Origin: Raillietiella orientalis
Taxonomy: Eukaryota
Assembly (NCBI GenBank): GCA_036172245.1
Contig: JAYWIR010000044.1
Span: forward strand, 1,488,001 to 1,552,000
Length of the DNA stretch: 64,000 nucleotides
Direction of reading: 5' to 3'
Made by a program: the position numbers and the translations under genes. The notes beneath the pieces are model-generated. The model was not told where the DNA came from. It ran no database searches and saw only the letters and a program-made list of their open reading frames with translations. Below, piece after piece: positions 19,091 through 64,000 of this stretch. The stretch's first letter is position 1. Each line of letters starts with the position of its first letter.

Positions 19091-19094
19091 GGGA

Positions 19095-19871: not shown

Positions 19872-21505
19872 TTTCACCCGGTCACGCCAAGTAGTTATTC
19901 TATAAAAAATAAACAAGTGAAGAAGGAAGTTTCTAGGCGACGACACCAAGAAACAAGGAGAAGGGTCTACTGGCACGCAGGCAGGGACAACAAATAGTCT
20001 GGAGTCGAGGAGGGAAAAGAGGACAACAAAAACAGAGTAGGAAGGGGCATGGATCTTTGAAGTCGCTCCTTTCGCGCCGCTATAAAAAAGAAAAACACCA
20101 GGAAAGCTGCTGATCAACCGGAGATGGGGAATAAGAGAAAAAAACAAAAGAATGAAGGAAGAGTGGGAGAAAGTGTCACCGTGTCCTCTGTTCCTAACCG
20201 CCCATCCACCTGCGGTGGATGACGGTGATCTCCTTGGCTTCATTTTCCAGATGGGCTACCTTACAGTCTCTCTGTTGTGCGTGGCTGCTATCCTTGTGAT
20301 CTCCTTTTGCTGGGCGGTGTTTTCCAGCACCTGTCGGGCTGCCACAATGGCACGATGCAACTCACGTTCTCAATTGCAGCTCCCGTCGAATTGCCTCTTG
20401 GCGCGAAAAACCGCCGCAGCACGGCTAGGGCAGTTTTCTCCTGGTGCAGGAATGCTGTTGCCAGTGTCCGCCACTGTTCATGGAAAACACCGCATTCCGA
20501 AAGCATGCTCAAAATCCACTCCTTCCTGCACACGGCGCAGGTCCGTGATGCAACCCCTCCCGGAACTCCAGGCTGTCGCTTGCTAAACTGGAACCTTCAG
20601 TGGATGAAGAGCAGTATGGCCTCTTTCCAAACGAGGAGGAACAACGAACCGCTTTTATATTGGGGACATACCACATTTTCTTCAGGAGCAACATACTCAA
20701 AAGTTCATACCAACGAAAAAGTCTCATCGCCACAGAACGCGCAGTAGCAGGATCCACCAGCTCGAGCGTCCTCCAGTCTCCAAGAAGTCTGTTTTTTCCC
20801 GCGGTGATGCACGAAATCTTCCGCTTCGTCAGCTGTTCACTGTCGTCTCTTGAGCTTAAGACAGACATTGCTGCGGAAATGGGCGTGGAAACCAGGCGAG
20901 TGCAATCGTCCTGGTACTGCAGAACATCCTCCAATAGTACTAAGAAAGCTGCACACAACGAAATCTGATAAGCAGCATTTGCTGATCCGTTTCACTGGAC
21001 CATGACGTCTCATGCTGCCACGCGTTTAAGTTGGTTAGGCAGCTGGAGATTTGGGAATACTATTTCAAGAGCGAGTTCCACTGCATGAGCAGAAAGCGGA
21101 ATCCTCTCGTGGTGCTCTGGGAATGCGGCGGCAACAAAAGCAGTTCTTCGCTGCCGGTGCAGCGCCAAAGTCGCAGGCGCGCGAAGCACACCACGGAGTC
21201 ATCCATAGCCTGGTAGAAAGCGCCAAGGAACTGCAATTGCAGCCCGATCCTGTCTAACGTCAAGGTGCCCAAGCTGGCATCCCAACGCGGAGAATTTAAG
21301 TCCTTGAGGCGTATCATTGAGTTCGCAGGTCCCCACATTGCGTTCCTCAACAGAAACAGCAAGCTGACATTGGCCGAGCTGAAAGGCAGAAAAAAAAAAA
21401 GAGAATGGCTGAGGAGGGAGACTGCAAAGGTGTTCCACTCGGAGGCCCCCTCCGGCAAGACGAGCTTCTCACCTTGGAAGGAGACGAGAGTGCTCTCTGC
21501 CTTAT
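19872..21505 (-). mobile_element. Decayed 3' part of L1/Tx1-type element (RT thumb to 3' end); left edge of the array
   Basis: LLRNAMWGPANSMIRLKDLNSPRWDASLGTLTLDRIGLQLQF and KISCITAGKNRLLGDWRTLEL match ORF2 of the copy at 56900-62805. A degenerate 3'-terminal motif lies at 19872-19899. Confidence 0.8.
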
Positions 21506-21508
21506 GTA

Positions 21509-21830
21509 GAGTCGGACGTGTATTTCGTTTGCTCCGCGAAAGCGAAAGGGCTTTTGTCTTCGAGCCGGGTAACCGGACATACTGAGCTTTGAAGGGTCGT
21601 TGACTCCCAAGTGCGTTTCCCCTTTCAGGTGCCTTAATCGGGTTATCTCCACTGGTATGTTTGCGTAGTAGCTAGGGTGACTTTCCCACATGGGTAAGAA
21701 GCCAAGAAAGGCAGAGGGCCTGCCTGTCACAGTAACGGAACGCGCCTCAGAGTGTCTTCCTCAGAAGTCCGTCGGCTTGTTTTCTTGCCTTGTTGGGAGA
21801 AGAACAAACGAAAAAAGGCTGTCAGAGGAG
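21509..21830 (+). mobile_element. 5' stub of a family member
   Basis: GAGTCGGACGTGTATTTCGTTTGCTCC matches the shared 5'-end motif (GGACGTG at 21514). Right boundary uncertain. Confidence 0.5.
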
Positions 21831-21849
21831 GGGAGATATTGAAGAATTC

Positions 21850-22515
21850 TTGATTGATCAAGGCCCAATCCAGCAAGTAGCACTTGCCTTTGATTTTCTA
21901 AGGCATTCGGACATGCTTCAGCAGTACAAAAGTCACCCGCTGGTACGCCAAGGTACTTAAAGTATCAGCCCGTGGGAAACCTCAAGCAGATCCAGTCCAC
22001 TTGCTATTCCAAGGACGCTCCAACCGGCACGACCGTGGACTTCGTCCTGCTGACGTCCAAGCCTGCTTTCCGGAGTATGAGCTCAAAGAATTCATCGATC
22101 TCCACCACCGGGGTGCATCTGGGCAATAGGAGAAGCAGGTCATCTGCGTAGACCGTCCCGCCGTCGTACATGGGCAGGACGTCAGGAAGTCTTAGAAGTA
22201 ATGACAGGCACAACAACTTGGTTCAGTCTGCCTTGAAACACATGCCACTGCCGGCCTGCAGGCCGGTGAGGCCCTCTTTGTAGTCGATGGTGAAGAGAAA
22301 ACCACAAACAAAAAAACCACAAAATATACAAAAACAACAGGCGAGGAAAATGTTTTTCGGGGACGGGAAATAAGGAAAGGGATCTCTGTTCTCTCCGAGT
22401 AGTCCTCTGCATCCCGTCAAGGATGCGGACGAGTGCTGGTCGTAAAGACCCTAGCCAGCGCCATCGAGAGGCCTTCTCCATGGAGATGGCCGACCAGTGA
22501 ATGGCATTCCGGCCG
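21850..22515 (-). mobile_element. Two decayed fragments: RT core (YADDLLLLLP) and an ORF2 C-terminus with 3' UTR
   Basis: ORF 22004-22216 VYADDLLLLLP...EFFELI. ORF near 22400-22515 RNAIHWSAISMEKASRW followed by a pyrimidine-rich UTR. Confidence 0.75.
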
Positions 22516-23120
22516 TTTCCCACCCGGGTGCGCTGGGGCGTTTATTTCTAAACCATACGGGAACAGGGTTCGTCACGGACAAAGGACACAAGAAAAAGAA
22601 TTGAGGGATTCTTGACACGCAGGTCGGTAAACCGAAAGTCTAAAACGGGAGAGAGGGGACCACAAACACACATGCAAAATACATAAATAAAGATATGGGA
22701 AGGGTAGGGGACAGGGGTCTTTGGTTCCGGCCGTTCCTTTCCTTCAGAACCGGCGGTGGATGCCCGAGATCTCGCTCCTCACGTCTTTCCGAAGATGGGC
22801 CCAATCGGCAGCCGACATCATGTTCTCGTCGGCTATTCCGGTGGCCTGACGTCCAATGGCCTGCTTCTTCAGCTCTGGGTGGAATTTGTTAATGGCGCGC
22901 CTCCTACAGACCGTTGCAATAAAAGCACCTGAGAACAGGCCTGCTAATGTGAAGAAGCGCCTCATCAAGTCCCTTGCGATACCCCCTGAAAGCAGGAGAG
23001 CTGATGCCAGGCTCCGCCACACTCCTTGAAGGACAATGCAGTCCAAGAGCAGGTGTGGGAGCGTCTCCACTTCCCCGTACCGTTTACAGTTCGGAGACAC
23101 AACTCCCCGCGTCCTTCTAG
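22516..23120 (-). mobile_element. 3' end of an element (zf-RVT-like region + 3' UTR), same subfamily as 30370-33955
   Basis: PNCKRYGEVETLPHLLLDC; 3' UTR visibly similar to 30370-30600; terminal motif AATAAACGCCCCAGCGCACCCGGGTG. Confidence 0.88.
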
Positions 23121-25046
23121 GGAGCGGACGTGGTTTGGCATCGCTCCGCGTACTGGTTGGTGGGAAACTTTTTGTTGGTTTTGTCTGGTGTGTGGGAGCT
23201 CCGGTGTCCAATGGCAGAAATGTCTGAGGACACCGCGATGGAAATTGGGGGGAGAGAGACGACTTGCTCTTCTCCACCCATGGAAGTGGGGGCACCCGCC
23301 CCCACAGAATCCGAAGCACTTACCACATCGAAATCTGGGACAACCGCCCCTTCGCGACCCTCTTCGCCAGTGGCGAAGAGTTGGAGTGCTGTCGTTGCTG
23401 CACCATCCCCGGCTGCAGTTGCGGAGCAGAATGCCTACAAAAACAGCGGCTACAAACCGTCGCTGATCTATAAGGTAGGCAGTGTATTTGACGAAAAGAT
23501 TGCACACTCCTTCGAAATAGAGCTGCAACGGCTGAATGTGAGGGAGGAAAACGTTGAGGGCCTCTCCGTCCTCAGTGCGGGACAGCGAGTCGAGCTGACC
23601 TGCAGAGATGCAAGTCTGGCGCAACGCCCGCTGAACACCCCTATTACGGTGACGGCCGCAGGATCTTCTCTGTGACGGAGGACCGCTCCGTCGTGGTCCA
23701 CCTCACAGGCGTGACACTACGGAAGGGCAAAACCGGTGTCCATGAGGAGTTGGCGAAACATGGTAATGTGCACGCGTATTGGGCCAAACCCAAAGTCTTC
23801 CGAGCGTACGGAAGGCTATTCAGTGGGATGGCCGCAGCCCGCGTCACCCTACCAGAGAATGGTGGGCTTCCCCACAAACTGAATATCGGCGAAGAAAAAG
23901 TCGATGTTTGGTACCTGGGTAAGCCCAAGTATTGTAGCCATTGCGATGCTACAGGGCATCTAAAAAAGCGGTGCCGTAACATCCAGTGCCACTTAGGTGG
24001 AAATAAGGACCACATCCGTAAGGTGTGCCCAAGAAGAGAAATCCCGCCCCCATCCGCTGCAAAAAAGGCAAAGGGGAAACGCACGGGAGAGACGCATAAA
24101 CAGAAACGGGCTGTAAACACCCAGATGCCAGTCCCTAAGCCCTCACAGCAAACATCGGTTGAGAACACTCCCGACGACGCTGGTGACGGCGAAGGCTGGC
24201 AGACGGTACAGCCACGAAGAAAACCCGGGAGTCCCGAACGAAACGCGGTGAAAACAAAAACGCAGCGCGAAAAACCGTGCCGCGAAAAGCTCCGCGCATG
24301 TTCGGTAAAATTAGAACGTGTGGAGGCACCCGATGCCGCCACCGGGGGAGCAATCCCCCCCTCGCGTCCGCCGAAGTTGCGACGGTCGATGGTGAACCCT
24401 CTGGCGAAACAGAGGGGCAAACGCGCGCCGCGCTCGACGCGATCGAGGAGGCCGCCTCCAGGCAGCCGGTGATAGAACTCACGGCTGAATTGCAAGGCCG
24501 TGAAAAGAACTCGCGAAAAGCCTTGCGAAGGCCGGCCGCGAGGAAGGCTCCGGAGGCAGGTGAGGCCGATCAGGACGTCGAAAGTGTGTCCTCTTCAGCG
24601 GAGGAGCCACCAAAGAAGACGGGACGGAAGTCTCAGAATCCCAGGAGGCGCATCCGGATCAATGAGGAGGCGGATGAATCGGCCCCCGAGGGGGAAGCCG
24701 GCAGCGTGGGAGGCGACGGTGGGAATCTCTCATTCCCCGACACCGTGCCGCTGGCGACCCCCATGTAGGAAGAAGTGCAGGTGAATGAACCCCCCCTTCC
24801 TCTGCACGGCACTGCCGACGATTTGGCCCTCATGGAGGAGGAAGAAGCGGTGCGCGACGCACCCCCTCCGCCTAGCGTTCAGCTCGACCAGGTGGTGGGA
24901 GCCCCATTGACAGTTTCCCAGGGTTAGCACCTGGGTTCGCCTGTCGCCGTCGGATCCGCGTAGCCTGCTGGAACGTCAACGTGCTGCGCGACGACGGCAA
25001 CAGGCGGGATTCGGCCGACACCCTGCGTGACTTCGAATTGGTGCTC
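23121..25046 (+). mobile_element. 5' part of an element: 5' UTR, frameshifted ORF1 (~23211-24927) and start of the endonuclease
   Basis: GGACGTG at 23126; YKPSLIYKVG motif; CSHCDATGHLKKRC knuckle; then ACWNVN. Truncated near 25046. Confidence 0.9.
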
Positions 25047-25730
25047 CCAGTTTGTGGGGAATCCCAATGTCCTTGGCTACCGTGATGCGCGCCGCGGCGA
25101 GTCCGCTTAGAAGTCCGTGGTAGGTACGGAATCTGTTGGGCTTCACCCACATTGCATGCACGGTGCCGAATTTATTCAGTTTAGCCCTGACGGCGCTCGG
25201 CGGCATCCTCAGGGTGATTCCGCTAAGGCGGACAACTATCCAGTTGTCCACTGGAACGGGGAAGAGCTAGCGGCCCTCGATCCTGACGGGGTTCGCAGCA
25301 GTGTTTGCGCCAACCCTGCTTCTTTGCAGGTCAGCTCGACATGCTGCCCCCGCTGCGGATGGATAGTCCCAACAGATCCACCTTGTTCACATTCATTCAA
25401 TGGAGATCCTGCTCGAAGGAGCGCGCCACACGGTCATCAAACAAATGGCCTACCTTGTACAGCATGCTGGGGTTGTAATTGTAGGCCTGGGCCTCGGCCA
25501 TGGAGCGACGACCACGGCGCTGTAGTCCCTCGCTAGCGCGGGGGACGATGCTTCGGGGTTGATACCACCAACTCCATGGGGACGAGGGACGTTCGACCGT
25601 CGACTCCTCCACATTTTCTAGTGGCGGGATCAGGTATTTCTGCCTTCCTTCGACCACTAAAACACCGCACTACACCAAGAAAAACGAGCGAGTCAGGAGC
25701 GCGCAAAAAAACCGTCCGACCATCGGCTCT
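25047..25730 (-). mobile_element. 5' stub of an element (5' UTR + ORF1 N-half)
   Basis: The minus strand begins GGTCGGACGGTTTTTTTGCGCGCTCC and encodes YNPSMLYKVG and KFGTVHAMWVKP...GIPHKL. Confidence 0.85.
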
Positions 25731-25731
25731 T

Positions 25732-27857
25732 TTATAACACCCGGGTGCTCCTGGGCGTTTATTTTTATAATAAAAAATAAACAAGCGTGTGCAGGGCTAT
25801 TGTCCCTACAGCGTCCGATCTTGGTTCTTATAAAAATGCTGAACTTGTCGAGTAGCCAGCACGCAAGCCGGCGAGTTCGACTAGACAGCGGAGGGAGAAA
25901 GGACAAATAAAAACAAAAAAAAGAAAACACTATTTACAAAAGTAGGGAGGGTTTGGGGAAGGAATCACGTTCCGCTGGGGTCGTCCTCTACATTCTTTTC
26001 AGGATGCCGGCAATTTCAGTCTGCATATGTTCCAGATGGGACCATCCGGCTGCCGTCCTCAGCAGGCGTAGGGAGGAGCAGATGATGTCCCTATCGTGCG
26101 CTCCACCAGTGGGGGTGCTCCAGGCCGCAACAATCCCTCGTTGGCAGCAGAGGGCAGCAAGGGCTGCGGCAGGCTAAAGGGCGTCGCGCACGAAGAGGCG
26201 CTTTAACACGTCTCTGGGATTGTTCTTGGCTGCTCCTAGGGCCGTTGCGAAAAAAAAACCACAGGGACCGGAGGGCAACACAGTCAAGAAGCAGGTGCAG
26301 GAGGGTTTCTCGTTCCCCGCACCTGGTACAATTTGAGTCCACAGGCCCCCTCGTCCAGTAAGAACGGCGGGCGTTGTTGGGGAGTCCCCAGTGCAACACC
26401 AAGAACGCCTACTCCTGCCACTTCAGGGGGAGGGCCAGGGTATTCTTCAGCAACGGGGGCCACTCGAGTACATCCAGCGGGATGCTCAGCAGATCGCCCC
26501 AGCGCAATAGTCTCTTCGGTGGGGCACTTGGAGTCCCAGCGTCAGTCAACTGGCCCGTGGTCCAACCACCATGTTTCTTCTCTCTTCTAGAGATGCTACA
26601 ACGAACCTTCCACTTGGCCGATTGGCTACTGCACAGGTGCTCCTCGAGGTGGGACAGAGCCTTGGAAAAAGAGGTCTTCTCAGCTCACGCACTCAAGGCG
26701 GGCAGCACGATGATGTCCTGCAGGGAGCGGCTCTTGTAAAAGGAGTGCAGAAGTCGCTGCCGCAACTCCGGGCTCGCATCCGCAATCTGGGACCACGTGC
26801 AAAGGCTCTCCTGCAACCAGGAAGTGCCGTTCGCGGGCCGGCAGGAGATCCAGGTGTTAGTCTTGGTCAGCGTGACCACTCGCCGAAGTGCCAGTCCGCA
26901 GTGGAAAAGGTACTGGCGTTTGCCGCGTGCTAGGAAGGTAGACAGTCCCGCGCAGCCGCTGGATCTCTGAACCAGGTATCGTGCAGGCTCGCACCAGCTG
27001 GTGCTCCATAACTTCGCCACTAGGGCTAACGTCATGAACTGCAGCTGCAGTTCCAGCCGCTCCAGCGTGTGGCGACCGAGGCGTCGATCGCGATGAGGAG
27101 CACACAAGTCTTTCAACGGGACTCGGGGCTTCCCTCTGCCCCAAATGGCAATCCTCAGAAGGTCCTTTGTCCATTTCTTCACACCGCAGAGTAAGGGGCA
27201 AAAAAAAGCAAGTGGCGAAAAAGGAGGGCCACGAACGTGTTACACACCATGTCCCGTTCCGGCAAGAAAAACTTGCCATCCAGGAACGGGTCGATCCCCT
27301 TCTAGGACTTTTGGAGGCAGCAAGACTACGCTTTCGCAAAGGAATACTTCGTTAACGGCACACCGAGGTACGTGAAGTACCGCACCGTGAGGATTCCCAA
27401 GGGGGATCAGTCTTGCTGCCCTGTACACGATGAAGCAACTGCAACCACGCACGATTTCGATCCGTTCACCTCCAGTCCTGTCCCTCGACTCAGCAGTTCG
27501 AAAAAGTTTTCGACCGCCGATGCTGGGGTAGAAATGGAAACAGCAGCAGAAGATCGCCCGCATACGACACCACGGACGGTGTACCTGGGCACATGCGCGA
27601 CAGGCGACCAAGAGTCTCCCTGTACGCCCTGAGCACTACTCGAAGTTGGTGCTGAAGAGCAAGGGGCTTAAGCTATCACCCTGCCGTATCCTGCGGCTCA
27701 CCGGCACACCAAACACGTTTCTTCCTCTGAAAGAGACATTGGTCTGCGCGTCGCGCCAGCAAGAGCGCAGAAAGGCCATCAAAGAGGACGGGAAGCCCAT
27801 GCGTTCCAGAAGATCCAGCAGGAGCTCCTGGTCGACGCAGTCAAATGCTTTTCGAGC
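25732..27857 (-). mobile_element. 3' part of an element (RT from KAFD to 3' end), degenerate
   Basis: KAFDCVDQELLL, IRQGDSLSPLLF and CTRCGERETLLHLLLDC; terminal motif at 25732-25763. Confidence 0.9.
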
Positions 27858-27859
27858 GC

Positions 27860-28395
27860 AGGGCGGACGTGTTTTCTCGGTGCTCCTCGGCGGCAATAAC
27901 GCTCTCTAGGAGCAAGCGTTCTGTGGTTCAGTGGTTGATCAGGCAGCGAGGCCTGACACGACCACCAGTGAGTGCCAGAAGGCGGCGGCAACGTCGAGCC
28001 CAGAGGCGATGGAGGTGGGGGTATCCGCCCCCACAGAATCGGTCCCCGCTGCAGAGCGGGCGTGGAGCGCCGTCGTGGCGACACCATCGCCTGCAGCTGC
28101 AGCGGAATTATCTACCTGTGTGGAGGATAGGTATAACCCCTCACTACTCTACAAGGTAGGAGATTTGTACTCTTCTGAGAGCGCGCGCGAATTCTCGAAA
28201 GGGATGCGCGCTCTCAATGATAAAGTGAAGGAGCACAGCGCGATGACCATTCGCAGCGGGGGTAGTACGTGGAGGTGATCTGCCGACAGGCAGATCTGGC
28301 CCAGCGTCTGCTCAAAACCCCCGTGGTGATGGAGACACGCAGGCTCCTTCCCATTACGGTGGACCGCAGTATGGTGTTCCATACTGCGGTCCACC
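27860..28395 (+). mobile_element. 5' stub of an element (5' UTR + ORF1 N-terminus)
   Basis: GGACGTG at 27865; AWSAVVATP and YNPSLLYKVG motifs; fused to the next copy. Confidence 0.8.
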
Positions 28396-30369
28396 GTAAT
28401 GCCGGTGTAGTGTGGGTCCTCGGTGTCCGATGGCAGCGTTGCCAAAGGACACCGCGATGGAGGTAGTCGTGAAGGAGGCGAGTCCTCCCACACCACCTAC
28501 AGATGTGGGGGCAACAGCCCCAGGACCGTCTTTGCAGCCTGCAAAGAGTTGGAACTCCAAGGTCGCCGTCCCCAGTGCGAAGGCTTTGGCCGAGGAACCT
28601 GCCTATTGGGCCAGTGGATACAAGCCATCGCTTGTGTACAAGGTAGGCCCTTTGTTTGAAGGCAATACGGCGCGCTCTTTCAGCAGAGCGCTGCAAAATA
28701 CAAATGTGCGTAAGGAAGATTCGGAAGGTCTGTCCGTGTTCAGCGGGGTGCTGCGCGTTGAGCTGGTGTGTAAGAGCATCAGCCTGGCCGATCGCCTTAT
28801 TAATACCTCGCTGATTATGGACGGCCGTAAGATCTTCCCGGTATCAATGGACCACTCGGTAGTGCTCCACTTGACAGGAATATCTAAGCGCATGACGCGC
28901 ACTTTCGTCAAAGAAGAACTAAGTAAATACGGGGACGTACACGCGCTGTGGCCGAAGCCCACAATTTTTGAGGGCTACGGGCGCAACTTCTGGGGCTTTG
29001 CCGCGGCACGTGTAACTCCAAAAGACGATGGGAAGCTTCCCCACAAACTTGAGGTCGCGGGAGAACCGGTAGACCTCTGGTATGCGCGCAAGCCACGGTA
29101 TTGCGGCTACTGCGATGCGGTCGGACACATCCGAAAAAGGTGCCCAAACATCGTATGCTACTTGTGCGGCGAGAAGAGAAACGTCCGTCGTGTGTGCCCC
29201 AAACGCCCCACCGCGATTCCCCCGTCCGCCAAAAAGGCGCAAGGGAAACGGGCGGGGAAAGAAAAACCGGAACACCGGGTAATTGGCCGAGAACAGCTGC
29301 CAGGAACCCAATCTCCAAGCGCGGCGTCGGAGCAAAAGCTCCCCGAAACCGCAGAAGGAGAAGAGGGCTGGCAGCTAGTCAAAACCAAAAAAGTGAAAAA
29401 GGACAAAGATGTCCCAAAGAAAGGAGAGAAGACCGCGTCCGGAACAAAACCGAAATCCGTGCCGCGCGTAAAAACTCTTTGCGAGTGCACGGTTACGCAG
29501 GAGCGCGTTGACGCTCCCGCCGACACCACCCGAGGCGATATGCCTTCAGTCTATGTTCCCGCTGCAACGGATGCGCGCGAAAACCCATCCCCTGCTTGCG
29601 CAGAGGATTAGCCGGGCGACAAACTCGCCGAAAGCGAGGACGCAGCCTTCGAGAAGGCCACGGAGGAGCTCGCGGCAACGCTTGCGGAACGCGAAAACGC
29701 TTCGCAGAAGGGGCTGCGTAGGCCGGCAGCGGCTAAAATGGTCCCCGCAGGTGAGTCGGACCGGGAAGGCGGAAGTGCATCCATCTCTGTGGAAGCACCA
29801 CCAAAGAAAGCGGGGCGAAAATCCCAGAAACCCCGAAGGTGCATTACACCTCCGAGAGAGGGGGATGCAATGGACGAAGATCCAGTGGACGGCAGCGTGG
29901 GAGCCCAAGTCAGGCATCACCCACGTTCGGAAGCCGACGAGGAGACGACTCCAATAAAGGAGGGTGCACAGGGGAGAGCAATGCCCCCTGAAACCGCCGA
30001 ACCTGAACAACCCGCACCAATGGATGTGGGCGAACAGGTAGGAGAAACACCCACTTCGCACGAAGAGCCGGAGACGTCGGCATCTAAGAAGGATGAGGAG
30101 TTGGTGGGCGAGACGCAAACCCCGTAGGGCGACCCGCCCCAAAAGGTGGCGGGAGTCCCACCGCCAGGTTCCCAGGAATAACACCTGGAATCGCCTGTCG
30201 CCGTCGGATCCGCGTGGCCTGTTGGAACGTCAACGGGCTGCGCGACGACGGAAACAGTCGGGACACAGCCGCCACCTTGCGAAAATTCGACCTGGCGCTT
30301 CTGCAGAAGATCCATGTGATCACCGCCAAAGACGTCCAGGAGATCAAGACGATCGCGGGGATCGGTTGT
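28396..30369 (+). mobile_element. 5' part of an element: ORF1 (28430-30181, with internal disruptions) and start of the endonuclease
   Basis: CGYCDAVGHIRKRC and CYLCGEKRNVRRVC knuckles; ACWNVNGL...LALLQKIH. Closely similar to 45646-48378. Confidence 0.92.
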
Positions 30370-33300: not shown

Positions 33301-33955
33301 GTCCGCAGCCTGAAGCTCCGTATGAACGTGCGTAGATGTTCCGCCGCGTCCGGGAGCTTCAGCCAGTCTCCTGGGAGACGCCACGCTGACGAGGGGGGCC
33401 CCTGTCGCGCGGATGTATCTCGAGGACTAGCGGGCGATGGTCGGACAGCTCGCACGGTAAATTGCCGCGCCTGCCCACGCGAGGGCACAGGTGCTCGTCA
33501 AGAAACACGTGGTCAATGCTATCTTATATCCCCGGTGCACTAACCAACAAATTACAGGTGTGCACCGCCATGCACACCTCGTTGACCGGCTCACGCTCGG
33601 GATTCTGCCCATCTGGTTTCAGGCGAACGTTGAAATCGCCTGCAACCAGATGGGCATTCCGCACGCCTGCATCGGTCAGCCAGTCTCGCCGGAGGGCAAG
33701 GAAAAACTCTTTCCTCGCCCGCCTGGTCATCAGGTCCCCGCCGCTCGGTGCGTACACGTTCGTGACGATCAGATCGATCGAGTCGGACTACCTGAGAGTC
33801 AGCTGGCCGACACGACCGTGATCGTCAAACCGCCCGCCCCGAGCCGCGGCCTCGACGGCTGGCCGAAGCAGATAGGCGACACCGCAACTTTTCGGTCTTC
33901 CACACCTGTACCACAGCCGCCCTCCGGAGATCCGTCCGATCTCCTGCGCTCGTAC
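30370..33955 (-). mobile_element. 3' part of an element: nearly whole degenerate ORF2 + 3' UTR
   Basis: AGDFNV, DHVFLD, RLIPKEGDLR, DLQKAFD, RQGDSLSP, YADE, RDGGLG, CKRCEEVETLPHLLLDC. Ends AATAAACGCCCCGGCGCACCCGGATGATAA. Confidence 0.93.
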
Positions 33956-45214: not shown

Positions 45215-45216
<2 letters not shown>

Positions 45217-45260
<44 letters not shown>

Positions 45261-45287
45261 AGAGAGAGAGAGATAGTAAAAATGCCC

Positions 45288-45360
<73 letters not shown>

Positions 45361-45400
45361 ATGTGTCCGGGTGTGACGGCGCGCTCTCTCTCTCTCTCTC
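45217..45400. repeat. Compound low-complexity tract: (AG)n, (CA)n, ~60-nt A run, (CT)n
   Basis: Directly visible in the sequence. Confidence 0.95.
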
Positions 45401-45407
45401 GGCGCGC

Positions 45408-45645
45408 TCTGTTGTTCTACGCGCGCACAAGGAGGAGTAATAGTCCCGCAGGATGCGGTTTATTTTCGCCGGAACTGAGCATTCCTGGCCTTGGGCGTCC
45501 AGCAAGCTGGCCGACCCAGATTGCAAGGTCTGTCGCTCAGCCCCAGCTTTATACTCCGCCAGCAGGCAAACGTCGAGAATCCTAGAGAAAAGACGGGAGT
45601 GATGGTATGCCAAGTCCTTCCTCAGCTCTTCGCCGAAAGCCGGTG
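45408..45645 (-). mobile_element. Inverted fragment of the 33956-45200 subfamily (EN-RT linker)
   Basis: Near-identical reverse complement of ~42300-42507, but it keeps TGFGEELRKD, which is deleted in that copy. Confidence 0.88.
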
Positions 45646-54300: not shown

Positions 54301-54582
54301 TGGGGCGTTTTGGGCACACACGTCGAACGTGGCCCTTCTCCCCGCACATGTGGCATTGGATGTTAGGACACCTCTTGCGAAGGTGTCCTACGGTATCGCA
54401 GTAGCCGCAATACCGGGGCTTTCCCACGTACCAGAGGTCCATGCTCTCTTGCGCGACCTCCAGCTTGTGGGGAAGCCCACAGTCCTTACTTACGGTTACT
54501 CGCGCTGCATCCTGGCCTCCGAAATGGCTATTGAAGCCTTCAAAGATTGTTGGCTTAGGTCACAGCGCGTGCACCTCGCCGA
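48379..54582 (-). mobile_element. Element lacking its 5' ~600 nt, with nested insert 51721-52868
   Basis: Terminal motif at 48379-48409; RT motifs DLHKAFD, GIRQGDSLSP, YAND; endonuclease split at GDFN; ORF1 C-half with CGYCDTVGHLRKRC. Confidence 0.93.
51721..52868 (-). mobile_element. Internally deleted copy of the 56900-62805 element at the homologous site
   Basis: Reverse complement of ~61663-62805 preceded by the 5' bases GAGT; flanked by GATTGAAAT (51712-51720) and GGTTGAAAT (52869-52877). Confidence 0.9.
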
Positions 54583-54589
54583 CTCGCTT

Positions 54590-57500
54590 GGCGAGTGGAC
54601 GTGTGTTTCCTTCGCTCCCGAGTGAGTCGACAGGAAGCGGTTTTTTATTGTGTTGTTTGGTGTGGAACATCGTTGGTGTCCGATGGCAGCGATGCCTGAG
54701 GACACCACGATGGAGGTAGGTGTGGGGGAGGCTTGACCACCCCCACAGCCTACAGAATCAGGGGCGTCCGCCCCGGAATCGCCCTCGCCGCCCAAGGCGA
54801 GGAGCTGGAGCGCCATGGTGGCCGCGCCGAGCGCGGAAACCGTGGCCGAGATGGCGGCCTACCGGTCAGCTGGGTACAAGCCCAGCTTGGTGTACCAGGT
54901 AGGCCCCTTATTTGACGGAAAAACGGCACGCGCGTTTTCGAAAGCGCTGCAAAACGCCGGAGAAAGAGAACAAGATCTTGACGGTTTGTCCGTTCTCAGC
55001 GAAGGTCAGCGAGTCGAGGTGGTGTGCAAGGAGATCACCTTGGCTCAGACTCTGATCACCAACCCGTTGAACGTCGACGGCCGCAAGATCTTGCCGGTGA
55101 CGATGGACCGCTCCGTGGTGGTCCATCTCACTGGAATAACGAGCCGTATGACTCGCTCTGCAGTAGCACAAGAACTACAAAAGTTCGGCGACGTGCACGC
55201 GCTGTGGCCTAAGCCAACAATCTTTGAAGGCTTCAATAGCCATTTCGGGGGCCAGGCTGCAGCGCGGGTAACCGTAAGTAAGGACTGTGGGCTTCCCCAC
55301 AAGCTGGAGGTCGCGCAAGAGAGCGTGGACCTCTGGTACGTGGGAAAGCCCCGGTATTGCGGCTACTGCGATACCGTAGGACACCTTCGCAAGAGGTGTC
55401 CTAACATCCAATGCCACATGTGCGGGGAGAAGGGCCACGTTCGACGTGTGTGCCCAAAACACCCCACTCCGGTTCCTCCTGCCGCGAAAAAGGCGCAGAT
55501 GAAACGCGCACTAAAGGTCACAAGACCTAAGGCGGACGCTGGCCGGCTGAAGCTGCCAGATCCTCAACCTTCAAAAGAAAAGACGGAGGATAAACCTTCC
55601 CAAGAGGCGGAAGGTGAAGAGCGCTGGCAACTTGTAGCAGCCAGAAAAGAGAGAAAAGCTCCTTAGAAGGAGAAGAAGGAGAAGCCGGCCGGTAAGGAAA
55701 AAAAACCCGGGCCGCGTTCGAAAACCGTACGCGAGTGCACGGTGGCACTGGAACGTATCGTCGTTCCGGAAGAGGCCACCCGGGGCGACGAGCCTCCCCT
55801 CGCCGTTTCCGTCGCGCCCGAAGTTCGCGACGGCGAACCCTCTGTGCAAACAGAGGATGAGCCGCGCGATGCGCCGGTCAACACCGAGGACGCCGCGTTC
55901 GCAAAGGCGGCAGAGGAGCTCGCGGCCACGCTGGAGGAGCGTGAGAACCCCTCACGCAAGGCCGTGCCAAGGCCGGCTCCCGCGAAAAAGGCCCCCACAG
56001 GTGAGTCGGACCTTTGGGCCGGAAGTGCATCCTCCTCCTCGAAGGTACCCCCCAGGAAGTCGGGACGCAAGTCCCAAAAACCCAGGAGGCGCCTCCCCTC
56101 GTCCAGCGAGGAGGAGAAGCAGGAAGCTAGCGGTAGCGTGGGAATCCCGGAGGGGGAACTCCCACGCTCGGAAGCCGTCGAGCCGGCCACCCCCATGGAG
56201 GAGGGTGAGCAGAGGGGCGTAGTCCTCCCTGCAGTCGCCGAGCCTGAACAGCCCGCCCCCATGGAGGAGGGCCAACAGGTAGGCGCGACCCCACCTGAGG
56301 GTGACGCGCTCGACGCGCCGTTACCCATGGAGGAGGGGGACCAGGTGCACGCAGCGCCTGACCCTCCTCCTCCACCTAGCGTCCCGCCCCAACAGGTGGC
56401 GGACGCCGCATCGCCATCTTCCCAGGAGTAACACCTGGGCTCGGCAGTCGCCGTCGGATTCGCGCCGCCTGTTGGAACGTCAACGGGCTGCGCGACGACG
56501 GTAACAGGCGAGATACGGCCGACACCCTGCGTGAGCTCGACCTGGCCCTGCTGCAGGAGATCCACGTGATCACCGCGGCAGACGCCCAGGAGATCGAGAC
56601 GATCGCGGGGGGTCGGTTGTATTGGCGGTGCGGCCTCCGCAACACCTGCGGGGTCGGGTTCTTCGTGAAGCCCGCCATCGACGCTGCCGTGAAGGCCGTG
56701 CGCTTCGATGACGACGGTCGGGTCGGTCAGCTGATTCTCAGCTGGTCCGACTCGATCGAACTGATCGTCACGAATGTGTACGCCCCCAGCGGTAAACAGG
56801 GATACAGCGACCGTACCAGGATGCTGGAATCCCCGAAGCGCGACTGGCTGGCGGACACGAACGTGGGGAAGGCTCAGCTGATAGCGGGAGATTTCAATCG
56901 AGTGCGGACGTGTTTTTCTTTGCTCTCGTCTCCGTGCTTTCATCCGCTTCATCTTGGCGTCGTACATTTTGACGACGATGTCGACCCAACTTGAAGCAAC
57001 TGAAGTTGGAGGAACAGCATCCGGATCTGCAATCGCGGAACCGACGGCCGCCTCCACTTCGTCTTTATCGCCAATGGAGAGGAGTTCTGCTGACGTTGCT
57101 GCCACAGCAGCCGTCAAAGGGAAGCCACTCGACGAGTCGGAGTTTCGGGCATACGTAGCCGAAGGCTATAGACCTGCTCTCCGATATAAGGTGAGTGGTT
57201 TTCTTTCTGCGCGCGACGGGAATCAGTTCAACGATGAACTGACCCGTGTTGGCGTGCGGGAGGAGGACCTTCTCGCCATTATGCCCGTAAAAGACATGGG
57301 CTATTTCAACGTGCGTTGCAAAGACGCTACACTTGTGCAACGCTTGCTGCGCACCCCGCTGTCGATCCGTGGCCAGAAGGTCTTCCCGGCTGCCATGGAC
57401 GACTCATTTGTGGCAAAGATTTTCCACATCGAGTCGGAAATCTCCGATACTGATATTCGGAACGCGTTGGCGAAATTCGCCACGGTCCATGCGCTGTGGA

Positions 57501-60500
57501 GGGTGCGTAGCAACCTCAAGGACTTCCCGTCCATACACAGCGGAGTCGCTGGAGTCCGGCTTACAATGCCGGACCGCCGTCTGCTTCCCACCAAACTACA
57601 AGTGAAAGACACGGTCGTTCACCTGTGGTTCGTGGGCAAAGTAAGAACGTGCGAGCAATGCGGGAAGTAGGGGCATTGTTTGGATAAATGCCCCTCTGGA
57701 AAATGCCGTTATTGCAAACTATCAGGGCACCAATTGAAAAATTGCCCGGATCTTTTGCGAAAAAAGGCAGCCGCGGAGCTCCATCTTAGAAAACAAAGCG
57801 CAAATAAAAAGAAAAAATCTGCGAAACACATGGAGACCTCACGGCAGAAATTCGGTAAAAACGCGAGGCGGAATGTCGCCCCAAAGCAGCAGGGAACCTC
57901 GCACGCGAAGCCCTGCGCGCCCCCTCTCGCGGCAGGGGAGCCGCAAAAGAAAGGGTGCGGGGAATCCGGGGCAATAATAAGTCCCCCTAGTCTCAATAGC
58001 TGTCCTTCCCAAGCACGCCCGGCTCTCTCGGAGTTCGAGCAACCGGCGGGGACGCCAATGGACAACGGCGGTAACGACACTTCCAGTACCGTCAGATCCA
58101 TTCCTTTACCTCCTGCAGTGGCTGAGAAGCCCAAATCGGGTAAGAAGGGTTGTGCCGTGTCGACTTCGAAAGTCGGCAAAAAAAAATCCGCGTCGCGATC
58201 CAACACCGCGAAAGCGGAGAAAAATCTCACGCCGTCGCAGTCGGAGAGCAAGCTCTCGACTGGCGCGGATGCCATGACAACGAAGGGATTAAAAGCCCTC
58301 CCGAAGGCAGCGTCCATGACGATCGTGTCGGAGCCATCGAAAGTGCTTTCGTCCAAAGACGCGGATGGCTTCAAAGATGGCAATGGAGCACAATCTCCAT
58401 TTACGGCGCCACGCGAAGTGAGGAACCGTAATGAAGTAAAGAAGACTTCCGCAAAGGTCCCTCGTGCAACTGCGCGTGAGCACGCTGAAAACGCGCGCGC
58501 CGGGAAAGCAGCCGTCACCAAAAGCAATGCTCTGGTGACGGAAAACGACAACAGGACAGCTGTCGATCCAGCAGAAACTGTCACTGCTTCGCGGAAGGCC
58601 GAAACCCGATCAACCATGCGCCGGTCGGACTCCGAAATGGATGCCGTTCCGATCACCGAGACGAGGACAACTCGTTGAAAAGCGTGTGCGCGCCGATCAA
58701 AAGTAGGCAGCCAGGCAACGCTCGCCGCGAAGCAACGCGGAGTCTCCACGAAACCCGACGGGGTTAAGCCTGACGTGGAGGCATTACATGCATGCAGCAC
58801 GACGGAGGACGGTGGCGACCGTCCCCTCCAGCCAGTCGTGCTGCTCGCAGTCTGCTCGCCGGATAAAGCAAGCAAAAAGCTGCCACCTTCCCGGCAGTAA
58901 TGCGGGAAATCGCATCTTTTCGTCGTCTGTCCGTAACGTGTTGGAACGTGAACGGACTGCAGAACGACGAGAAGAGGCGATTAGTAGCCAACGCCCTGCG
59001 CCCCTTCGACCTCGCGCTCCTGCAGGAGATTTACGTAATCTCCGACGAACAGGCAGCCGAAATCGCGGAGCGCGCAAGCGGAACGCTACATCGGCGGTGC
59101 GGCGGCGCACACACGTGCGGCGTCGCGTTCCTCGTAAGAGGAAAAATGGCGGAAGCGGTGCGTAGTGTTCGTTCCGATGACGACGGACGGATAGGCCAGC
59201 TTGTCATCAAGTGGTCCGAGTCCATCGATCTCGTCGTTACGAACGTCTACGCGCCGAGTGGCTCTCGCAACCTCGAAGAAAGAGTAGCTTTCTTTGGTGA
59301 GGTGCAGAGCAACTGGCTTAACAACTCCGGCTTCCAAGTGGCGCACCTCGTCGCTGGGGACTTCAACGTCCGCCTGCTCTCCGACGATTGGAGCCGCCCG
59401 AGGGAGCGCGCGCTGCCCACCGAGATGTGCGCGTCCGTGCACGCCGCCAACTTGATGGTCAGCGAACCTGGAATGGAAAGATCGCTCGATCACGTTTTCC
59501 TCGATAAAAACCTGCATTCGCGTGTGGGTAGGAGAGGAAGATTGTTGACTGAGCTTTCTGACCACCACAGGTTGGAGTTTGAGATCCTTCCGCCAGGCAG
59601 GGGGTCTCCGTTGCAATGCTGGAGGATGCAGGCGGATTGGCTTAGCCAACCGGAAGCTGCGGAGCATCTACGTGGATACCTCCGAGGCTTTGCCATTCAA
59701 GAACTTGCGGACTGGGATGATCTCAAAAGATCTGTCCGCGAGTTCTGTTGCCAATCCCCCTTGCACCGGCTTCCATGCGGTTTCGGAGAGGGCGTGGCCA
59801 ACAGTAGAGACTTTCTGCAGGCCCGCACGTTTTCAAAACGCGCGGATGTTGGGTGTCTCGCAGAGTACAAGGCGAGGGCCGAGCGCCAGGTCTGGCAGTC
59901 CGGAGCAGCATGCCTGTTAAACGACAAGGGCCAGGAATGTTCGGCCCCAGCCGAGGTACGCCGCATTGTGAGACGCTACTACTCCTCGCTCTACGCGAAA
60001 TCCTTGACGGAGGATATTCTTTCTGAGATACTCCTGTCTCAGGATGCTCGTGTTGTCGGCGAGGAGGAACGCGAACGTCTCGACGAGCCCTTCACGGCGG
60101 ATGAATTTTCGTCCGCCTTCGCTGGGCTGAAGAGACGAAAGGCGCCAGGCGAGGATGGGCTCCCTGCAGAGTTTTATCAGTGCTTTGCAGTGGAGCGCAT
60201 TCCCTTGATGCTGAAACTCGCGACGCTGATGAGTGAATCCGGGAATGTCCCAGATTCCTTCCGCTCAGCGAAGGTGCGTCTCCTGCCGAAAGGCGGAGAC
60301 TTGCGCCAACTTAACAACTGGCGTCCGATCACCTTGGTGAACTCGGACGTCAAGTTGTTTTCCAAGCTGTAAGTCGCGCGGTTAGGAAGTATCGCGGAAT
60401 CTGTAATGAGCCCGGAACAAACCTGCGCGGTTCCGGGACGATCCATGGAGGCGAACATCCTTTTCGCTCGTCCATGGATGCAGCTGCAGGAAGTTGTGGC

Positions 60501-63148
60501 GCAGCAAAGCCAGGCTGCTGCGAAAGTCACTGCCGCAGGCAAAAAGAACAGGCGCCGACGGCAGGAGGGAACGCCAGGTGCCTTGGCGGTCGCGGTCGAT
60601 CTCCACAAGGCGTTCGACTGCGTAAACCAGAAGCTGCTTTTGGAGCTTATGGAACGCCTTGGGTTCCCGGCGCAACTCCTGCTGTATTTGCGCGCGTGCT
60701 GGCGCAACGCGCTAACCTGCATCACTTTTAGCGGCTGCCGCGTGTATGGTATCCCTGTTCGTAGGGGCATCCGACAGGGCGACAGCTTAAGCCCGTTGCT
60801 CTTCAGCATCTTCTTTGAGTTGGTGCTAAGAGCATACAGGCTGACGCTGTCTCACATGCCAAGCTCCTTCCCGGGAACGCCTGCCGTGGCCGCCTACACT
60901 GATGACCTGCTTCTTCTGCTCCCCATGTCCACCCCGGCGTCCAGTGTCGAGGATTTCTTCGACCTGATTCGTCGGGGAGCGGGCGTGAGCGTGAACAGAG
61001 AGAAGAGCCTGGTCGTTCCTGTGGGTACGTCGTGGGAGAAGCAGTCCGACTGGATCCGCCTGGGGATCCCCACGGGCGTGTACTTTAAGTACCTTGGCGT
61101 TCCGTTGGGCGCTTTCGGCGCACCCGAAGCGTGGGCGGTCTGTCTTCAGAAAGCAGAGTTGGCCATCAGCCCGTTCTTTAACGGCAAGTTTACCTTGCAG
61201 GAACGGGCGACTATTTGGAACACCTTTGTGGCCCCCCTCCTCCGTCCCCTGTTTTTTGTTTTGGACCCCCCCTATGCGGCGAAACAGCGGGCTAAGCGCC
61301 TGCTCAGGAACGCTCTCTGGGGTCCGGCGAGATCCAGGATCCGCCTTAAAGAATTGTCAGCTCCGCGTCGGGATGCTGGTTTGGGTATCCTGACAATGGA
61401 GCGAATCGGACTGCAGGTGCAGTTCCGACTGCTTGCACTGTGTGCCCAGCTATGGACATCCCCCCTGTGTGTGCCAGCTCGCATTCTCCAGCGGAGATGC
61501 GCCGGCAGCGGAGGATTTCTCTCGCTTTTGCCGGGCACTCAATACAGGAAGCGGGGTTTCGTGTTTCCATTGCGGCAGTTGACCGCACTTCTGGAAGCAC
61601 ACTCTTGGATCTCCTGTCGCCCAATGAACTTTGAAGCTTGGCGGCAGGAGTCTGTTGAATCCTGGGCGGCGTTCCAAGGAATACGTCCTGAAGATCTTCG
61701 CCCCCTGCGCCAATTTTTTCACGATCCTTGGAAGAAGTACTGCAGGACGAGGTGAAGTTTTCTACTCTGGCTGCCACGCCTCTTGCCGCAGCGCTGTCTG
61801 CCCTCAGGGCAAGAAACGACAGTTACCAACCGGCGAGGTAAGAGGTTTTCTGCACGATAGCGGGAAAAACCAAACTCCTTGGCACCTCTAAGACAAGTGA
61901 GTTGGCGGACGCCGCCACTCCTCGTGTTACTGCAAAGGGACTCCTCCGGTGGGCAGAAGAACTTGCTGTCACCCCCGAAGAACTTGTAGTCCCTCTACAG
62001 TGTATGGACAGTTCGCTGCTCCCCCTTGCTTGGAAACCAGCCGTGCTGCTTTTCGTTCACTGGGGTTTTCAGTGCAACGAGCGTTGGCATCGTGACTCCG
62101 GGGGACTTGCGTCTGCGAACTGCGTTCTGTGCGGATCGACGGAGTCGATTCCGCACCTACTTCTGGACTGCGGTGTCCTACAAGGACTGTGGCGTAGGCT
62201 GGCAACAGCACTATTGCATCCCGTGGACACCGCAAGAGACTTGCTGCGACGATTCTTCACGCGGAGCGGGCTTTCACTAAGCGCAAGGATTGCAACCATC
62301 GGTTGCATACGCGCGATAGTTTCCGTCCGCCAGGCGTTGGTAATCAACGGACAGCACCAAGAGGTAATCAGCAAAGCATCCTTCTACATGGGAGCATCCG
62401 CTAGATGGCCTCATTTGACAGAGGAGACAAAGAGGAATCTCGCCGCAATACACCGCCGGTTTACACACGCTCAGCAGCGGCCAACCCGGTGATCATTGAC
62501 CTACCCTCCATAAACTATTTTTGTATTTTCTTTTTACATCCGCGTCCCCATAGGCTCCGGAACATTCTAGGTGCTCATCGTCTAAATCCCCGTGAGTACG
62601 GAGCCTAACCAAAAACCCGTTACCCTTCCCTCCAGTTTTTGATTTTTGTTTGTTTCCCCTCATTCCTCCCACACTGCGAGCGGTTTGTTTACCAAGCCTG
62701 CGTGCCGGTAATTTTTCTATGTTCTCTGTCGTTCTGTTGTTGAAGGACATTGTCCCTGAGCAGTTTATTATTATTAATAAACGCCCCGGCGTGACCGGGT
62801 GATAAATTTCAATCTCCGTCTGCTAACAGGTGAGCCACAAACACAAGAGAACGCGATGAACGAGTTGTGCGCCGCCATGCGTGCGCGCAACTTGTTCGCG
62901 GGTGAGAGGGGAATGGTCCGCAGCATCGACCACGTCTTCCTCGACGCTAACCTGTGTTCACGGGTCGGCAAACGGGGGAGGGTTGCGTCGACGTTGTCGG
63001 ACCATTCCCGGTTAATTTTCGAGATGTGGCCTCGAGACAAAGGACCACCGTCCAGGGATTGGCGTATGCCGGTGGACTGGACGCGACTCTCAGGTGCGAA
63101 GGAACGCCTTCGCGAATACCTGAGAAGCGTCACGCTCCGGAATCTCCA
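54590..63148 (+). mobile_element. 5' part of an element (ORF1 ~54683-56431, endonuclease), host of the 56900-62805 insertion
   Basis: GGACGTG at 54597; two CCHC knuckles; ACWNVNGL, LLQEIH; AGDFN resumes as FNLRLL at 62806. Confidence 0.93.
56900..62805 (+). mobile_element. Full-length (5.9 kb) element with a 9-bp TSD; ORF1 56978-58900, ORF2 58900-62492, a few stops/frameshifts
   Basis: TSD ATTTCAATC at 56891-56899 and 62806-62814. Begins GAGTGCGGACGTGTTTTT and ends AATAAACGCCCCGGCGTGACCGGGTGATAA. EN, RT (YTDD) and CVLCGSTESIPHLLLDC motifs. Confidence 0.96.
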
Positions 63149-64000
63149 TTGAAACCCGGGTGCGCCGGGACGTTTATTCTCTCGAATAAACCTATACAAT
63201 CTGTTACTGGACCAGTAGTCCAGCCACGCCCTGGAAAGATATAGCTTGCCGGGCTACCGGTGCGCAGACCGGCGCGGTCGACCTCGGCAGCAGAGGGGAG
63301 GGGGAACGAAACAAAAAGAAAACAAAAAATAAACAAAAATCAGGGAGGGAGCGGGAAGGGATCACAGTCTGCTGGGAGGCTCCGTCATCCTCTGGAGGAT
63401 GCCGGCAAGCTGTTTCTGCGTGTGTGGTTCCAGATGGGGCCATCGCGTCGCCATCCTGAGGAAACGGGCAGCATACACGTTGGCATCCCTGTCGCTGGAT
63501 CCTCCCGTCGATTTGCTCCATGCCACGACGATCCCGCGTAGGCAGCACAGGGCTGCAAGCAAGGCCGCTGGAGGCAGGGCGTCACGGACGAAGAGGGGGC
63601 GCAAAGCGTCACTGGGGTTGCCTCCGGGGATCCCCACGGCTGCGGCAAAGCGTTCCCACAAGGGACGGAGGGCAACACAATCCACTAACAGGTGGGGGAG
63701 GTATTCCCTCTCCCCGCACCTGACACAATTAGGGTTGACAACCCCCGCGTCCAGTGGTTTTGGCGGGCGTTGCAAGGAAACCCCCAATGCAACACCATCA
63801 GTGCCGACTGTTGCCACTTTATGGGGAGGGTGCGCGAGTCCATAAGCACCATGGGACACTCGAGATGTTCCTCTGGAACATCCAGTAGCTCTCCCCAGCG
63901 CAACAGTCCATTTGGGGTGGTCCTCGGGGTCGCAGCGTTGGTGAGCTGACCCGTTCTCCAATCCCCGTTCTTCTTTGCCCTGCTGGCGATCTTGAAAGTA
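63149..64000 (-). mobile_element. 3' end of a further element, continuing beyond the window
   Basis: CVRCGEREYLPHLLVDC; terminal motif AATAAACGTCCCGGCGCACCCGGGTTTCAA. Confidence 0.92.

Follow-up and report, generated by a model that had tools for sequence, protein, structure and literature searches.

The right-hand 44 kb of a 64,000-nucleotide (nt) stretch of Raillietiella orientalis DNA (contig JAYWIR010000044.1; the whole stretch is called the window below) form a stack, at window positions 19872-64000, that consists of L1/Tx1-like retrotransposons without long terminal repeats (non-LTR elements) alone, with kin inserted into kin. The reading to which we give a slightly better than even chance is that successive endonuclease-primed insertions into earlier copies produced a Russian-doll nest, which is here seen from its left edge and was later reshaped. 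Canonical termini stand at 15 left-hand junctions, the four complete inserts carry target-site duplications (TSDs) of 9, 12, and 12 bp (pieces N and T of Table 1 being counted as one event), and every junction that bears a terminus looks like an ordinary product of target-primed reverse transcription (TPRT). The nest accounts for the canonical termini, the TSDs, the motif found at the nick sites, the mixture of lineages, and the remnant K. What we infer from these observations is in which order the events took place, that the right halves exist, and why the orientation is biased.

That the 44 kb are made only of related elements had been predicted from the letters alone, and this is borne out. 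Of the 44129 bases of 19872-64000, 39479 (89.5%) are homologous to another copy within the window, and the six uncovered stretches of at least 80 nt are all element-internal (untranslated regions, the single J copy, and the tail of ORF1, the first open reading frame). No non-element DNA was found inside the stack by this homology coverage of the window copies. The G+C content from 19872 to the end of the window is about 52-62%, mostly near 58%, whereas that of bases 1-19.8 kb is 31-53%. Pieces were mapped by tblastn and nhmmer in the coordinates of T, a complete copy of 5906 nt (56900-62805) that serves as the reference for every element position (nt) given below and in Table 1.

Junctions, nick sites, and orientation

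The original prediction had placed six plus-strand 5' ends at 21509, 23121, 27860, 33956, 45646, and 54590, each abutting a truncated minus-strand copy head-to-head. All six are correct to the base, and the left neighbour of each is indeed an internally cut minus-strand piece. The minus-strand 3' ends announced at 30370, 48379, and 63149 are likewise exact, the plus-strand pieces on their left being cut at about nt 2208, 2889, and 2793, and further minus-strand 3' termini lie at 19872, 22516, 25732, and 51721. Inserts with both host halves were found where they had been expected, at 35313-40926, at 56900-62805, and at 51721-52868, a derivative of the second, and their TSDs were identified. The same-strand junctions at 22516, 25732, about 28396, and 56900 were also recovered. 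The more general claim that nearly every piece keeps its left terminus and lacks its right part stands for 11 left-only pieces, to which Q, cut off by the window edge, would be added as a twelfth, but not for two right-only pieces and three closed ones that have both sides. The right-hand termini that had been overlooked are the 5' end of D at about 25731 (minus strand) and the 3' end of Y2 at 45399 (plus strand). Three junctions, near 21740, 25047, and 28396, are internal-to-internal, and with the joint at 42298 these make at least four junctions that are deletions or repair joints.

Several of these junctions have features of their own. D and E form a same-strand head-to-tail pair (25715-25745) in which D, at its true 5' end, is 9 nt away from the 3' end of E; this fits either insertion beside an element boundary or an end-to-end template jump. 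The 23-nt hairpin at the joint of F and G resembles fold-back synthesis in break repair. An origin of G and H from one RNA was rejected, since their coordinates overlap by 57 nt without similarity, and so was the idea that A1 and A2 are one copy with a long TSD, since the overlapping 182 nt are unrelated.

The primer strand was examined at the eight 3' junctions with a known nick, namely seven minus-strand 3' ends and that of T itself. At four of them (E, H, J, and M) TCGG is among the 12 nt that precede the nick, and it is absent there at A1, B, Q, and T; the background is 3.8% and p is 1.3e-4, for a motif that was picked post hoc. At the 5' junctions of L and P, TCGGCG is found in the host sense strand within the last 18 nt before the junction, so that TCGG stands at TSD distance at two of six 5' junctions (background 6.3%, p 0.05), which fits a TSD of about 8-15 nt. 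Because TCGG is found at both 3' and 5' junctions, both types look like independent endonuclease-primed events. Nicks 2-5 nt past TCGG seem to be preferred by the endonuclease. The preference is not strict, as a solo copy in AT-rich DNA left of the stack has no TCGG at its site. The motif is 2.5 times commoner in the stack (4.3 per kb) than in the AT-rich flank (1.7 per kb), and insertions into kin elements are spread over many element positions.

According to the nest reading, the left flank of the cluster would have been built by repeated TPRT of a GC-rich, multi-lineage family into its own kin. Each minus element would have been primed from a sense-strand nick of a plus host, leaving its intact 3' end against the cut host, and each plus element would have entered a minus host, leaving its full-length 5' end against the cut host. 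With this insertion geometry, a reading from left to right would descend into the nest and meet left termini, and the matching right halves would lie to the right of base 64000. Later events would comprise the deletions or repair joints at the four positions named above, an inverted duplication or a composite retro-copy that gave O-N-M and P-T-P', and an internal deletion in one T copy that made N. Of the three options offered by the original prediction, the antisense-biased nest fits best, with TPRT-like terminal junctions, TCGG at both junction types, and TSDs of 9-12 bp, although several junctions need correction.

Host-insert relations could be observed directly in 13 cases, of which 11 are antisense and two are sense (T in P and B in A2; two-sided p 0.022); if P/O is left out, the count is 10 to 2 (p 0.039). 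This antisense excess may in part be a matter of survivorship: sense-nested copies are direct repeats that would be deleted by recombination, whereas antisense nests would persist. The 42298 joint would be an example of such a deletion between two plus copies.

A number of observations weigh against the nest as a sufficient account. First, a strand asymmetry of TCGG, tried as the cause of the antisense bias, is not found (162 sense and 179 antisense occurrences within elements), so the motif does not explain the bias. Second, insertion sites cluster, with 7 of 13 within nt 2151-3098, but only marginally so (scan-statistic p 0.05). Third, the right halves would have to lie outside the window, which ends at base 64000. 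Fourth, in simulations in which full-length elements were inserted uniformly into a growing cluster, truncation and deletion being ignored, averages for the 44 kb at the left edge were 3.8-5.5 open (left-only) elements and about 5.5 closed ones. At least nine open elements were reached in 0/300, 0/300, 4/300, 3/300, and 1/60 runs for 15, 30, 100, 300, and 1000 elements, respectively, that is, in at most 1.7% of the runs. Given this excess, which is an indication and not a proof, a nest needs a preference for the youngest copy or another process. Fifth, stop-codon density shows no steady decrease from the outer elements inwards: none is present in 829 codons of Y2, while 975 codons of M, despite its position within the host of Y2, contain 6. 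An age gradient was therefore not retained, there being no clear trend. Finally, the nest alone explains neither the frequent hits on the newest copy nor the pair O and P, typical head-to-head partners that are 96% identical and have a common T/N insert.

An alternative, which we consider unlikely, is that growth was coupled and always extended the newest copy, rather than proceeding by independent insertion into random old copies. One route would be two-ended priming, or snap-back of complementary DNA (cDNA), giving inverted dimers; another would be a nick or stall inside a just-integrated element that primes the next RNA. If coupled growth were true, the stack would be a directional, orientation-alternating array of long interspersed nuclear elements (LINEs) in an animal, possibly marking a centromere-like locus.

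A very unlikely rival is growth from one side. Pieces would have been added at the right only, whether at a chromosome end or a persistent break, or by a reverse transcriptase that jumped serially from template to template, landing on the 3' ends of RNAs and of first-strand cDNAs, and whatever was left of the template before would have been lost. If each template were entered at its 3' end, every piece would bear a left terminus; D and E, with a full 5' end, 9 nt, and a 3' end, do look like an end-to-end jump, and the excess of open pieces over a uniform nest points the same way. However, K and D are right-hand remnants, the TCGG motif points to an endonuclease that cuts duplex DNA, and 44 kb far exceeds one polymerisation event. 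Moreover, a free 3' OH cannot add a plus element 5' end first by TPRT, and such an addition is thus incompatible with TPRT chemistry. With no telomere-type repeats in the window and ordinary genes at the left edge as well, the telomere-like growth that had been put forward as a third option is disfavoured.

It is very improbable that some junctions are simply false joins made during assembly. The region is highly repetitive, and the only public sequencing run with related sequence (X1; 7% of sampled words) gives contigs that are mostly 90-95% alike, as from a relative or from other copies; of the 8 pieces listed out of 317, none spans a head-to-head junction. No RNA run with related sequence was listed. 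However, false joins fall in shared sequence and keep element coordinates, whereas here exact termini meet unrelated internal points; the copies, being 4-35% different, are effectively unique, and the window contains no N. Furthermore, among those same 8 pieces, two span the junctions of J in I (window 35006-35608 and 40636-41147, at about 93-95% identity). In this run, summed contig depth is highest for J-family sequence. Either J may have this site of I-type elements as its target, or a relative may share the locus.

Table 1. Pieces of the stack in left-to-right order, followed by features of the left flank; nt, position in copy T
Feature	Window position	Strand	Element coordinates	Remarks
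A1	19872-21508	-	nt 5904 to ~4245	3' end at 19872 adjoining non-element DNA
S	21509-21740	+	nt 1 to ~230	5'-end fragment, identified by 5' motif only
A2	21741-22515	-	nt ~4427 to ~3650	Internal, no terminus; copy distinct from A1
B	22516-23120	-	nt 5906 to 5192	3' end at 22516; H lineage
C	23121-25047	+	nt 1 to 2122	True 5' end; right end meets internal point of D
D	25048-25731	-	nt 698 to 1	True 5' end at ~25722-25731, a right-hand terminus
E	25732-27859	-	nt 5906 to 3706	3' end at 25732
F	27860-28378	+	nt 1 to ~530	True 5' end
Hairpin at F/G joint	28352-28401			Perfect 23-nt inverted repeat, 4-nt loop
G	28402-30369	+	nt 72 to 2208	87% identical to L; cut by 3' end of H
H	30370-33955	-	nt 5906 to 2151	3' end at 30370
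I, left half	33956-35312	+	nt 1 to 1333	True 5' end; T lineage
J	35313-40926	-		Complete insert in I; 12-bp TSD CCGACTCGGCAG
I, right half	40927-42297	+	nt 1333 to 2708	Ends at non-canonical joint with 4-nt microhomology
Y2	42298-45399	+	nt ~2900 to 5906	Lineage of M, E, Q; 949-aa open frame
K	45400-45645	-	nt 3098 to 2877	96.8% identical to start of Y2; cut again by L
L	45646-48378	+	nt 1 to 2889	True 5' end; cut by 3' end of M after GATTCGGCG
M	48379-51720	-	nt 5906 to 2461	3' end at 48379; one element with O
N	51721-52868	-		T copy minus nt 5-4763; at T's site, with T's TSD
O	52869-54589	-	nt 2468 to ~590	Followed by 8 nt of filler; inverted 96.5% copy of P
P	54590-56899	+	nt 1 to 2469	True 5' end
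T	56900-62805	+	nt 1 to 5906	Complete 5906-nt element, sense inside P; 9-bp TSD ATTTCAATC
P'	62806-63148	+	nt 2461 to 2793	Continues P; cut by 3' end of Q
Q	63149-64000	-	from nt 5906	3' end at 63149; runs off window
DENND4/Crag-like gene	183-4629	-		uDENN, DENN, dDENN exons; long, intron-poor exons
Solo copy	11894-12552	+		5'-truncated, outside stack, in AT-rich DNA; 12-bp TSD ACCTAATAGTAA
RRM-domain exon	15594-15983	-		Left of stack

The element family and its lineages

The stack has Pfam matches to Exo_endo_phos, RVT_1, zf-RVT, and zf-CCHC. The second open reading frame, ORF2, begins with an apurinic/apyrimidinic (AP)-type endonuclease (Exo_endo_phos, E 6.6e-14, in 58867-60372) and contains a reverse transcriptase (RVT_1, E 2.2e-24). 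Its best relative of solved structure in the PDB is human L1 ORF2p (E 1e-40), whereas R2 proteins match at 1e-16 or more weakly. At the C terminus of ORF2, zf-RVT is matched weakly in a sister copy (E 8.2e-5, 23.6 bits, under the Pfam cut-off of 27.5), and the zf-CCHC match of ORF1 (E 7.7e-4) is slightly under its cut-off, two CX2CX4HX4C knuckles being visible in the translation. With an AP-type endonuclease and a reverse transcriptase closest to L1 ORF2p, the family is assigned, on its predicted proteins, to the L1 superfamily type (L1/Tx1-like). It was previously unsampled: among 5.8 billion proteins, the closest is one metagenome fragment at 65% identity, all others being at most 30% identical, and the nearest named matches are from fish and frog (28-29% identity). 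A metagenome scan with ORF2 returned seven loci, six at 23-28% identity and one 30-residue match at 60%, and no close relative. Within the stack, J represents a distant sister family with 26% amino-acid identity to T.

All lineages have the same termini. The 5' end reads (G)AGNGCGGACGTGT...GCTCC, a motif that also starts the plus-strand piece at 56900 (T), and the 3' end reads AATAAACG-CCCCGG-CGCA-CCCGGG-TGATAA, without poly(A). A poly(A) or A-rich 3' tail is typical of L1 proper. Here, the nine 3' ends that could be aligned close with a conserved stem-loop followed by TGATAA-like bases, and poly(A) is found in none of them. The five pairs of the 5-bp stem are conserved, and no compensatory changes occur among the aligned 3' ends. 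The 3' untranslated region of Y2 (45217-45358) contains (AG)28 and an uninterrupted A60 shortly before the terminal stem-loop, a feature seen in Y2 alone.

Trees of the endonuclease region and of the reverse transcriptase region distinguish at least three lineages. The first comprises T, I, A1, and A2, the second H and B, and the third C, G, L, and P/O, known from their 5' halves, with M, E, Q, and Y2, known from their 3' halves. Codon-position differences between lineages are 0.49-0.62 at third and 0.26-0.39 at second positions. This excess at third positions argues that the lineages diverged under selection as functional elements, and not by decay in place, so that distinct active lineages supplied the copies of the stack.

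The lineages also bear on the stretch 33956-45600, which had been taken for one plus-strand copy but is made of two elements of different lineages joined at 42298. In the endonuclease tree, I (as I'a) groups with T with a support of 100/100, in the reverse transcriptase tree Y2 groups with M, E, and Q (99/100), and the approximately unbiased (AU) test rejects a grouping of Y2 with T (p 2e-73). At the joint, element coordinates jump by 182-195 nt, one alignment giving a gap of 182 nt and another setting the start of Y2 some 12 nt further in, the reading frame changes, and a 4-nt microhomology, AAGG, is common to both sides. The start of Y2 and K form a 218-bp inverted repeat (42298-42514 and 45400-45617, 96.8% identity), and K is the right-hand remnant of the host of Y2. 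In the simplest history, a minus copy, the host of K, would have entered I, its sibling Y2 would have entered this host antisense at nt 3098, and L would have entered it at nt 2877. One deletion between the plus copies I and Y2 would then have taken out the intervening DNA, and K would have stayed behind as a right-hand remnant of the host. A flip of 42515-45399 between the 218-bp inverted repeats is possible but not preferred, since it takes one event more than a single deletion. L and Y2 were also considered as two halves of one element; their coordinates meet within about 15 nt, but the overlap sequence differs, and this was rejected.

The inverted duplication of O-N-M and P-T-P'

Without 56904-61662, the sequence 55178-63148 recurs in inverted form, at about 96% identity, as 51378-54589. 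One pair of arms aligns 52865-54582 with 56903-55185 (96.5%) and the other aligns 51378-52864 with 63148-61663 (95.8%). They differ at 60/1719 and 63/1487 positions, transitions being about as frequent as transversions, with one gap column per arm pair, and read error does not account for these differences, which are real divergence. N lies in the left arm, which ends at P coordinate ~590 and is followed by 8 filler bases and then by the true 5' end of P. As Q interrupts the right arm only, it is younger than the duplication. The head-to-head junction predicted at 54590 is thus present, but partners that are so alike and share a nested insert do not make a simple independent insertion, and the O/P junction cannot be a plain one. 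Four options are available: insertion of an 11.8-kb retro-copy of a composite O+T+M RNA into the parent itself, gene conversion between the siblings in inverted orientation, snap-back of first-strand cDNA, or DNA fold-back with the break at the 5' end of P.

Two of these options also figure in rival readings of the stack as a whole. The first is the paired insertion raised by the original prediction, in which each truncated minus element and the full-length plus element beside it come from one event. Either both strands of a staggered break would prime cDNA, in a process like twin priming on two RNAs, or a full-length first-strand cDNA would snap back and prime its own second strand. The stack would then be a shallower, sense-oriented nest of plus elements, with an inverted partner 5' of each. 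The same asymmetry is indeed found at all six head-to-head junctions, the minus member being truncated and the plus member full length, and the minus members are uninterrupted save by N. Seven full-length plus elements (S, C, F, I, L, P, and T) have one absolute orientation, D and J being on the minus strand. The geometry of O and P is exactly that of a snap-back, since the left arm stops at nt 590, a 590-nt spacer directly adjoins the right arm, and the identity between the arms is 96%. However, H and I differ in lineage across a 550-nt overlap, B (H lineage) and C (L/P lineage) differ in lineage, and the ~13-nt overlap of K and L differs in sequence. In addition, TCGG at four of the eight 3' junctions is taken as the mark of a first-strand nick and is not expected at a secondary nick. 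Even for O and P, the T/N insert is present in both arms with a divergence of 3.5% as against 4.2%, and a composite RNA or gene conversion would still be needed. Weakened chiefly by the nick motif and by the H/I difference, paired insertion appears unlikely.

Classical twin priming was considered separately. In human LINE-1, as Ostertag and Kazazian reportedly described in 2001, the outcome is a head-to-head pair whose 5' part is inverted. The two segments are derived from a single RNA, and their coordinates complement each other. Such an inversion was rejected for the pairs of the stack because the H and I lineages differ and the K/L overlap differs in sequence; K and L, whose coordinates meet within about 15 nt, were rejected as a single twin-primed element for this latter reason. 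O and P do belong to the same lineage, but they overlap by 2.2 kb and both have the nested insert.

The second rival reading, which we regard as distinctly improbable, is a large DNA palindrome, in which a fold-back centred on 54590-55178 would have duplicated the right arm in inverted form. What lies to the left in the stack would be mirrored beyond the window, and the apparent polarity would partly be a mirror image. Over at least 3.2 kb, nested insert included, the arms have 96% identity, they differ almost only by substitutions with one gap column each, and the left arm continues where Q cuts the right one. The hairpin at 28352-28401 could be a second fold-back signature. By contrast, the break would have to fall at most 8 nt from the 5' end of P, high-identity mirror symmetry is not seen between any other two neighbours in the window, and the older junctions are left unexplained.

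Genomic setting and comparison with known systems

The left flank (1-19.8 kb) carries ordinary animal genes (Table 1). The DENND4 exon (390 aa) matches orthologues of insects, molluscs, and vertebrates equally well, at about 38-44% identity, and the host is therefore an animal without close kinship to any well-sampled group. The host genes, with the long, intron-poor exons of the DENND4/Crag-like gene, suggest a compact animal genome with a G+C content (31-43%) far below the element value of about 58%. The solo copy in this flank is bounded by its TSD at 11882-11893 and 12553-12564, and the family therefore also inserts normally in unique DNA outside the cluster. A 180-nt fragment of eukaryotic large-subunit ribosomal RNA (19067-19248, minus strand; Rfam RF02543, 83.5 bits, model positions 1176-1350) lies about 600 nt left of the first element of the stack, outside any ribosomal DNA context.

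The locus is a compact record of TPRT junctions, with 15 left-hand termini, TSDs of 9-12 bp, and fold-back and microhomology joints, as well as an inverted duplication that coincides with the 5' end of an element. Should the antisense bias and the surplus of open copies prove to be genome-wide, strand- or age-specific targeting by a LINE endonuclease would be suggested, which is not established for this superfamily. Searching the literature turned up no account of a self-nested LINE stack of alternating orientation in an animal, which is no proof of absence. Besides human LINE-1, three known systems offer partial parallels.

In Drosophila heterochromatin, where nested and inverted transposon junctions are common, copies nested in the opposite orientation, junctions of inversions, and double insertions at a single site have been described (McGurk and Barbash 2018, PMC5932611). 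Those nests draw on many unrelated families, whereas here one superfamily fills 44 kb with a consistent polarity. A second parallel is provided by animal LINEs of the Tx1 clade, which are reported to prefer other transposons as targets: Tx1 inserts in Tx1D, and crocodilian Tx1 elements insert in Mariner-N4 and LTR elements (PMC4494074). The family described here is also an animal LINE of the L1 superfamily, and J sits at one site of an I-type element. Unlike those LINEs, however, the stack has kin elements as targets, at many positions and not at one site, one copy lies in unique AT-rich DNA, and the family is a candidate member of the clade.

A third parallel is found in Zepp and ZeppL, the L1-type LINEs of the green algae Coccomyxa and Chlamydomonas, for which self-insertion and GC-rich, LINE-only clusters of tens of kb are reported (PMC3446292, PMC8226300). 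The elements of the stack likewise insert into existing copies and form a LINE-only cluster. Zepp arrays are reported to be tandem and to consist mostly of 5'-truncated 3' ends with poly(A) (PMC8226300). A cluster of the Zepp kind would further be expected once per chromosome, at the centromere. In the stack, by contrast, the host is an animal, poly(A) is replaced by a 3' stem-loop, most pieces start at true termini, seven 5' ends are full length, and the orientation alternates. LINE clusters of the self-nesting kind have their best documentation in green algae, where they mark putative centromeres, and a comparable LINE-only cluster in an animal extends this green-algal pattern.

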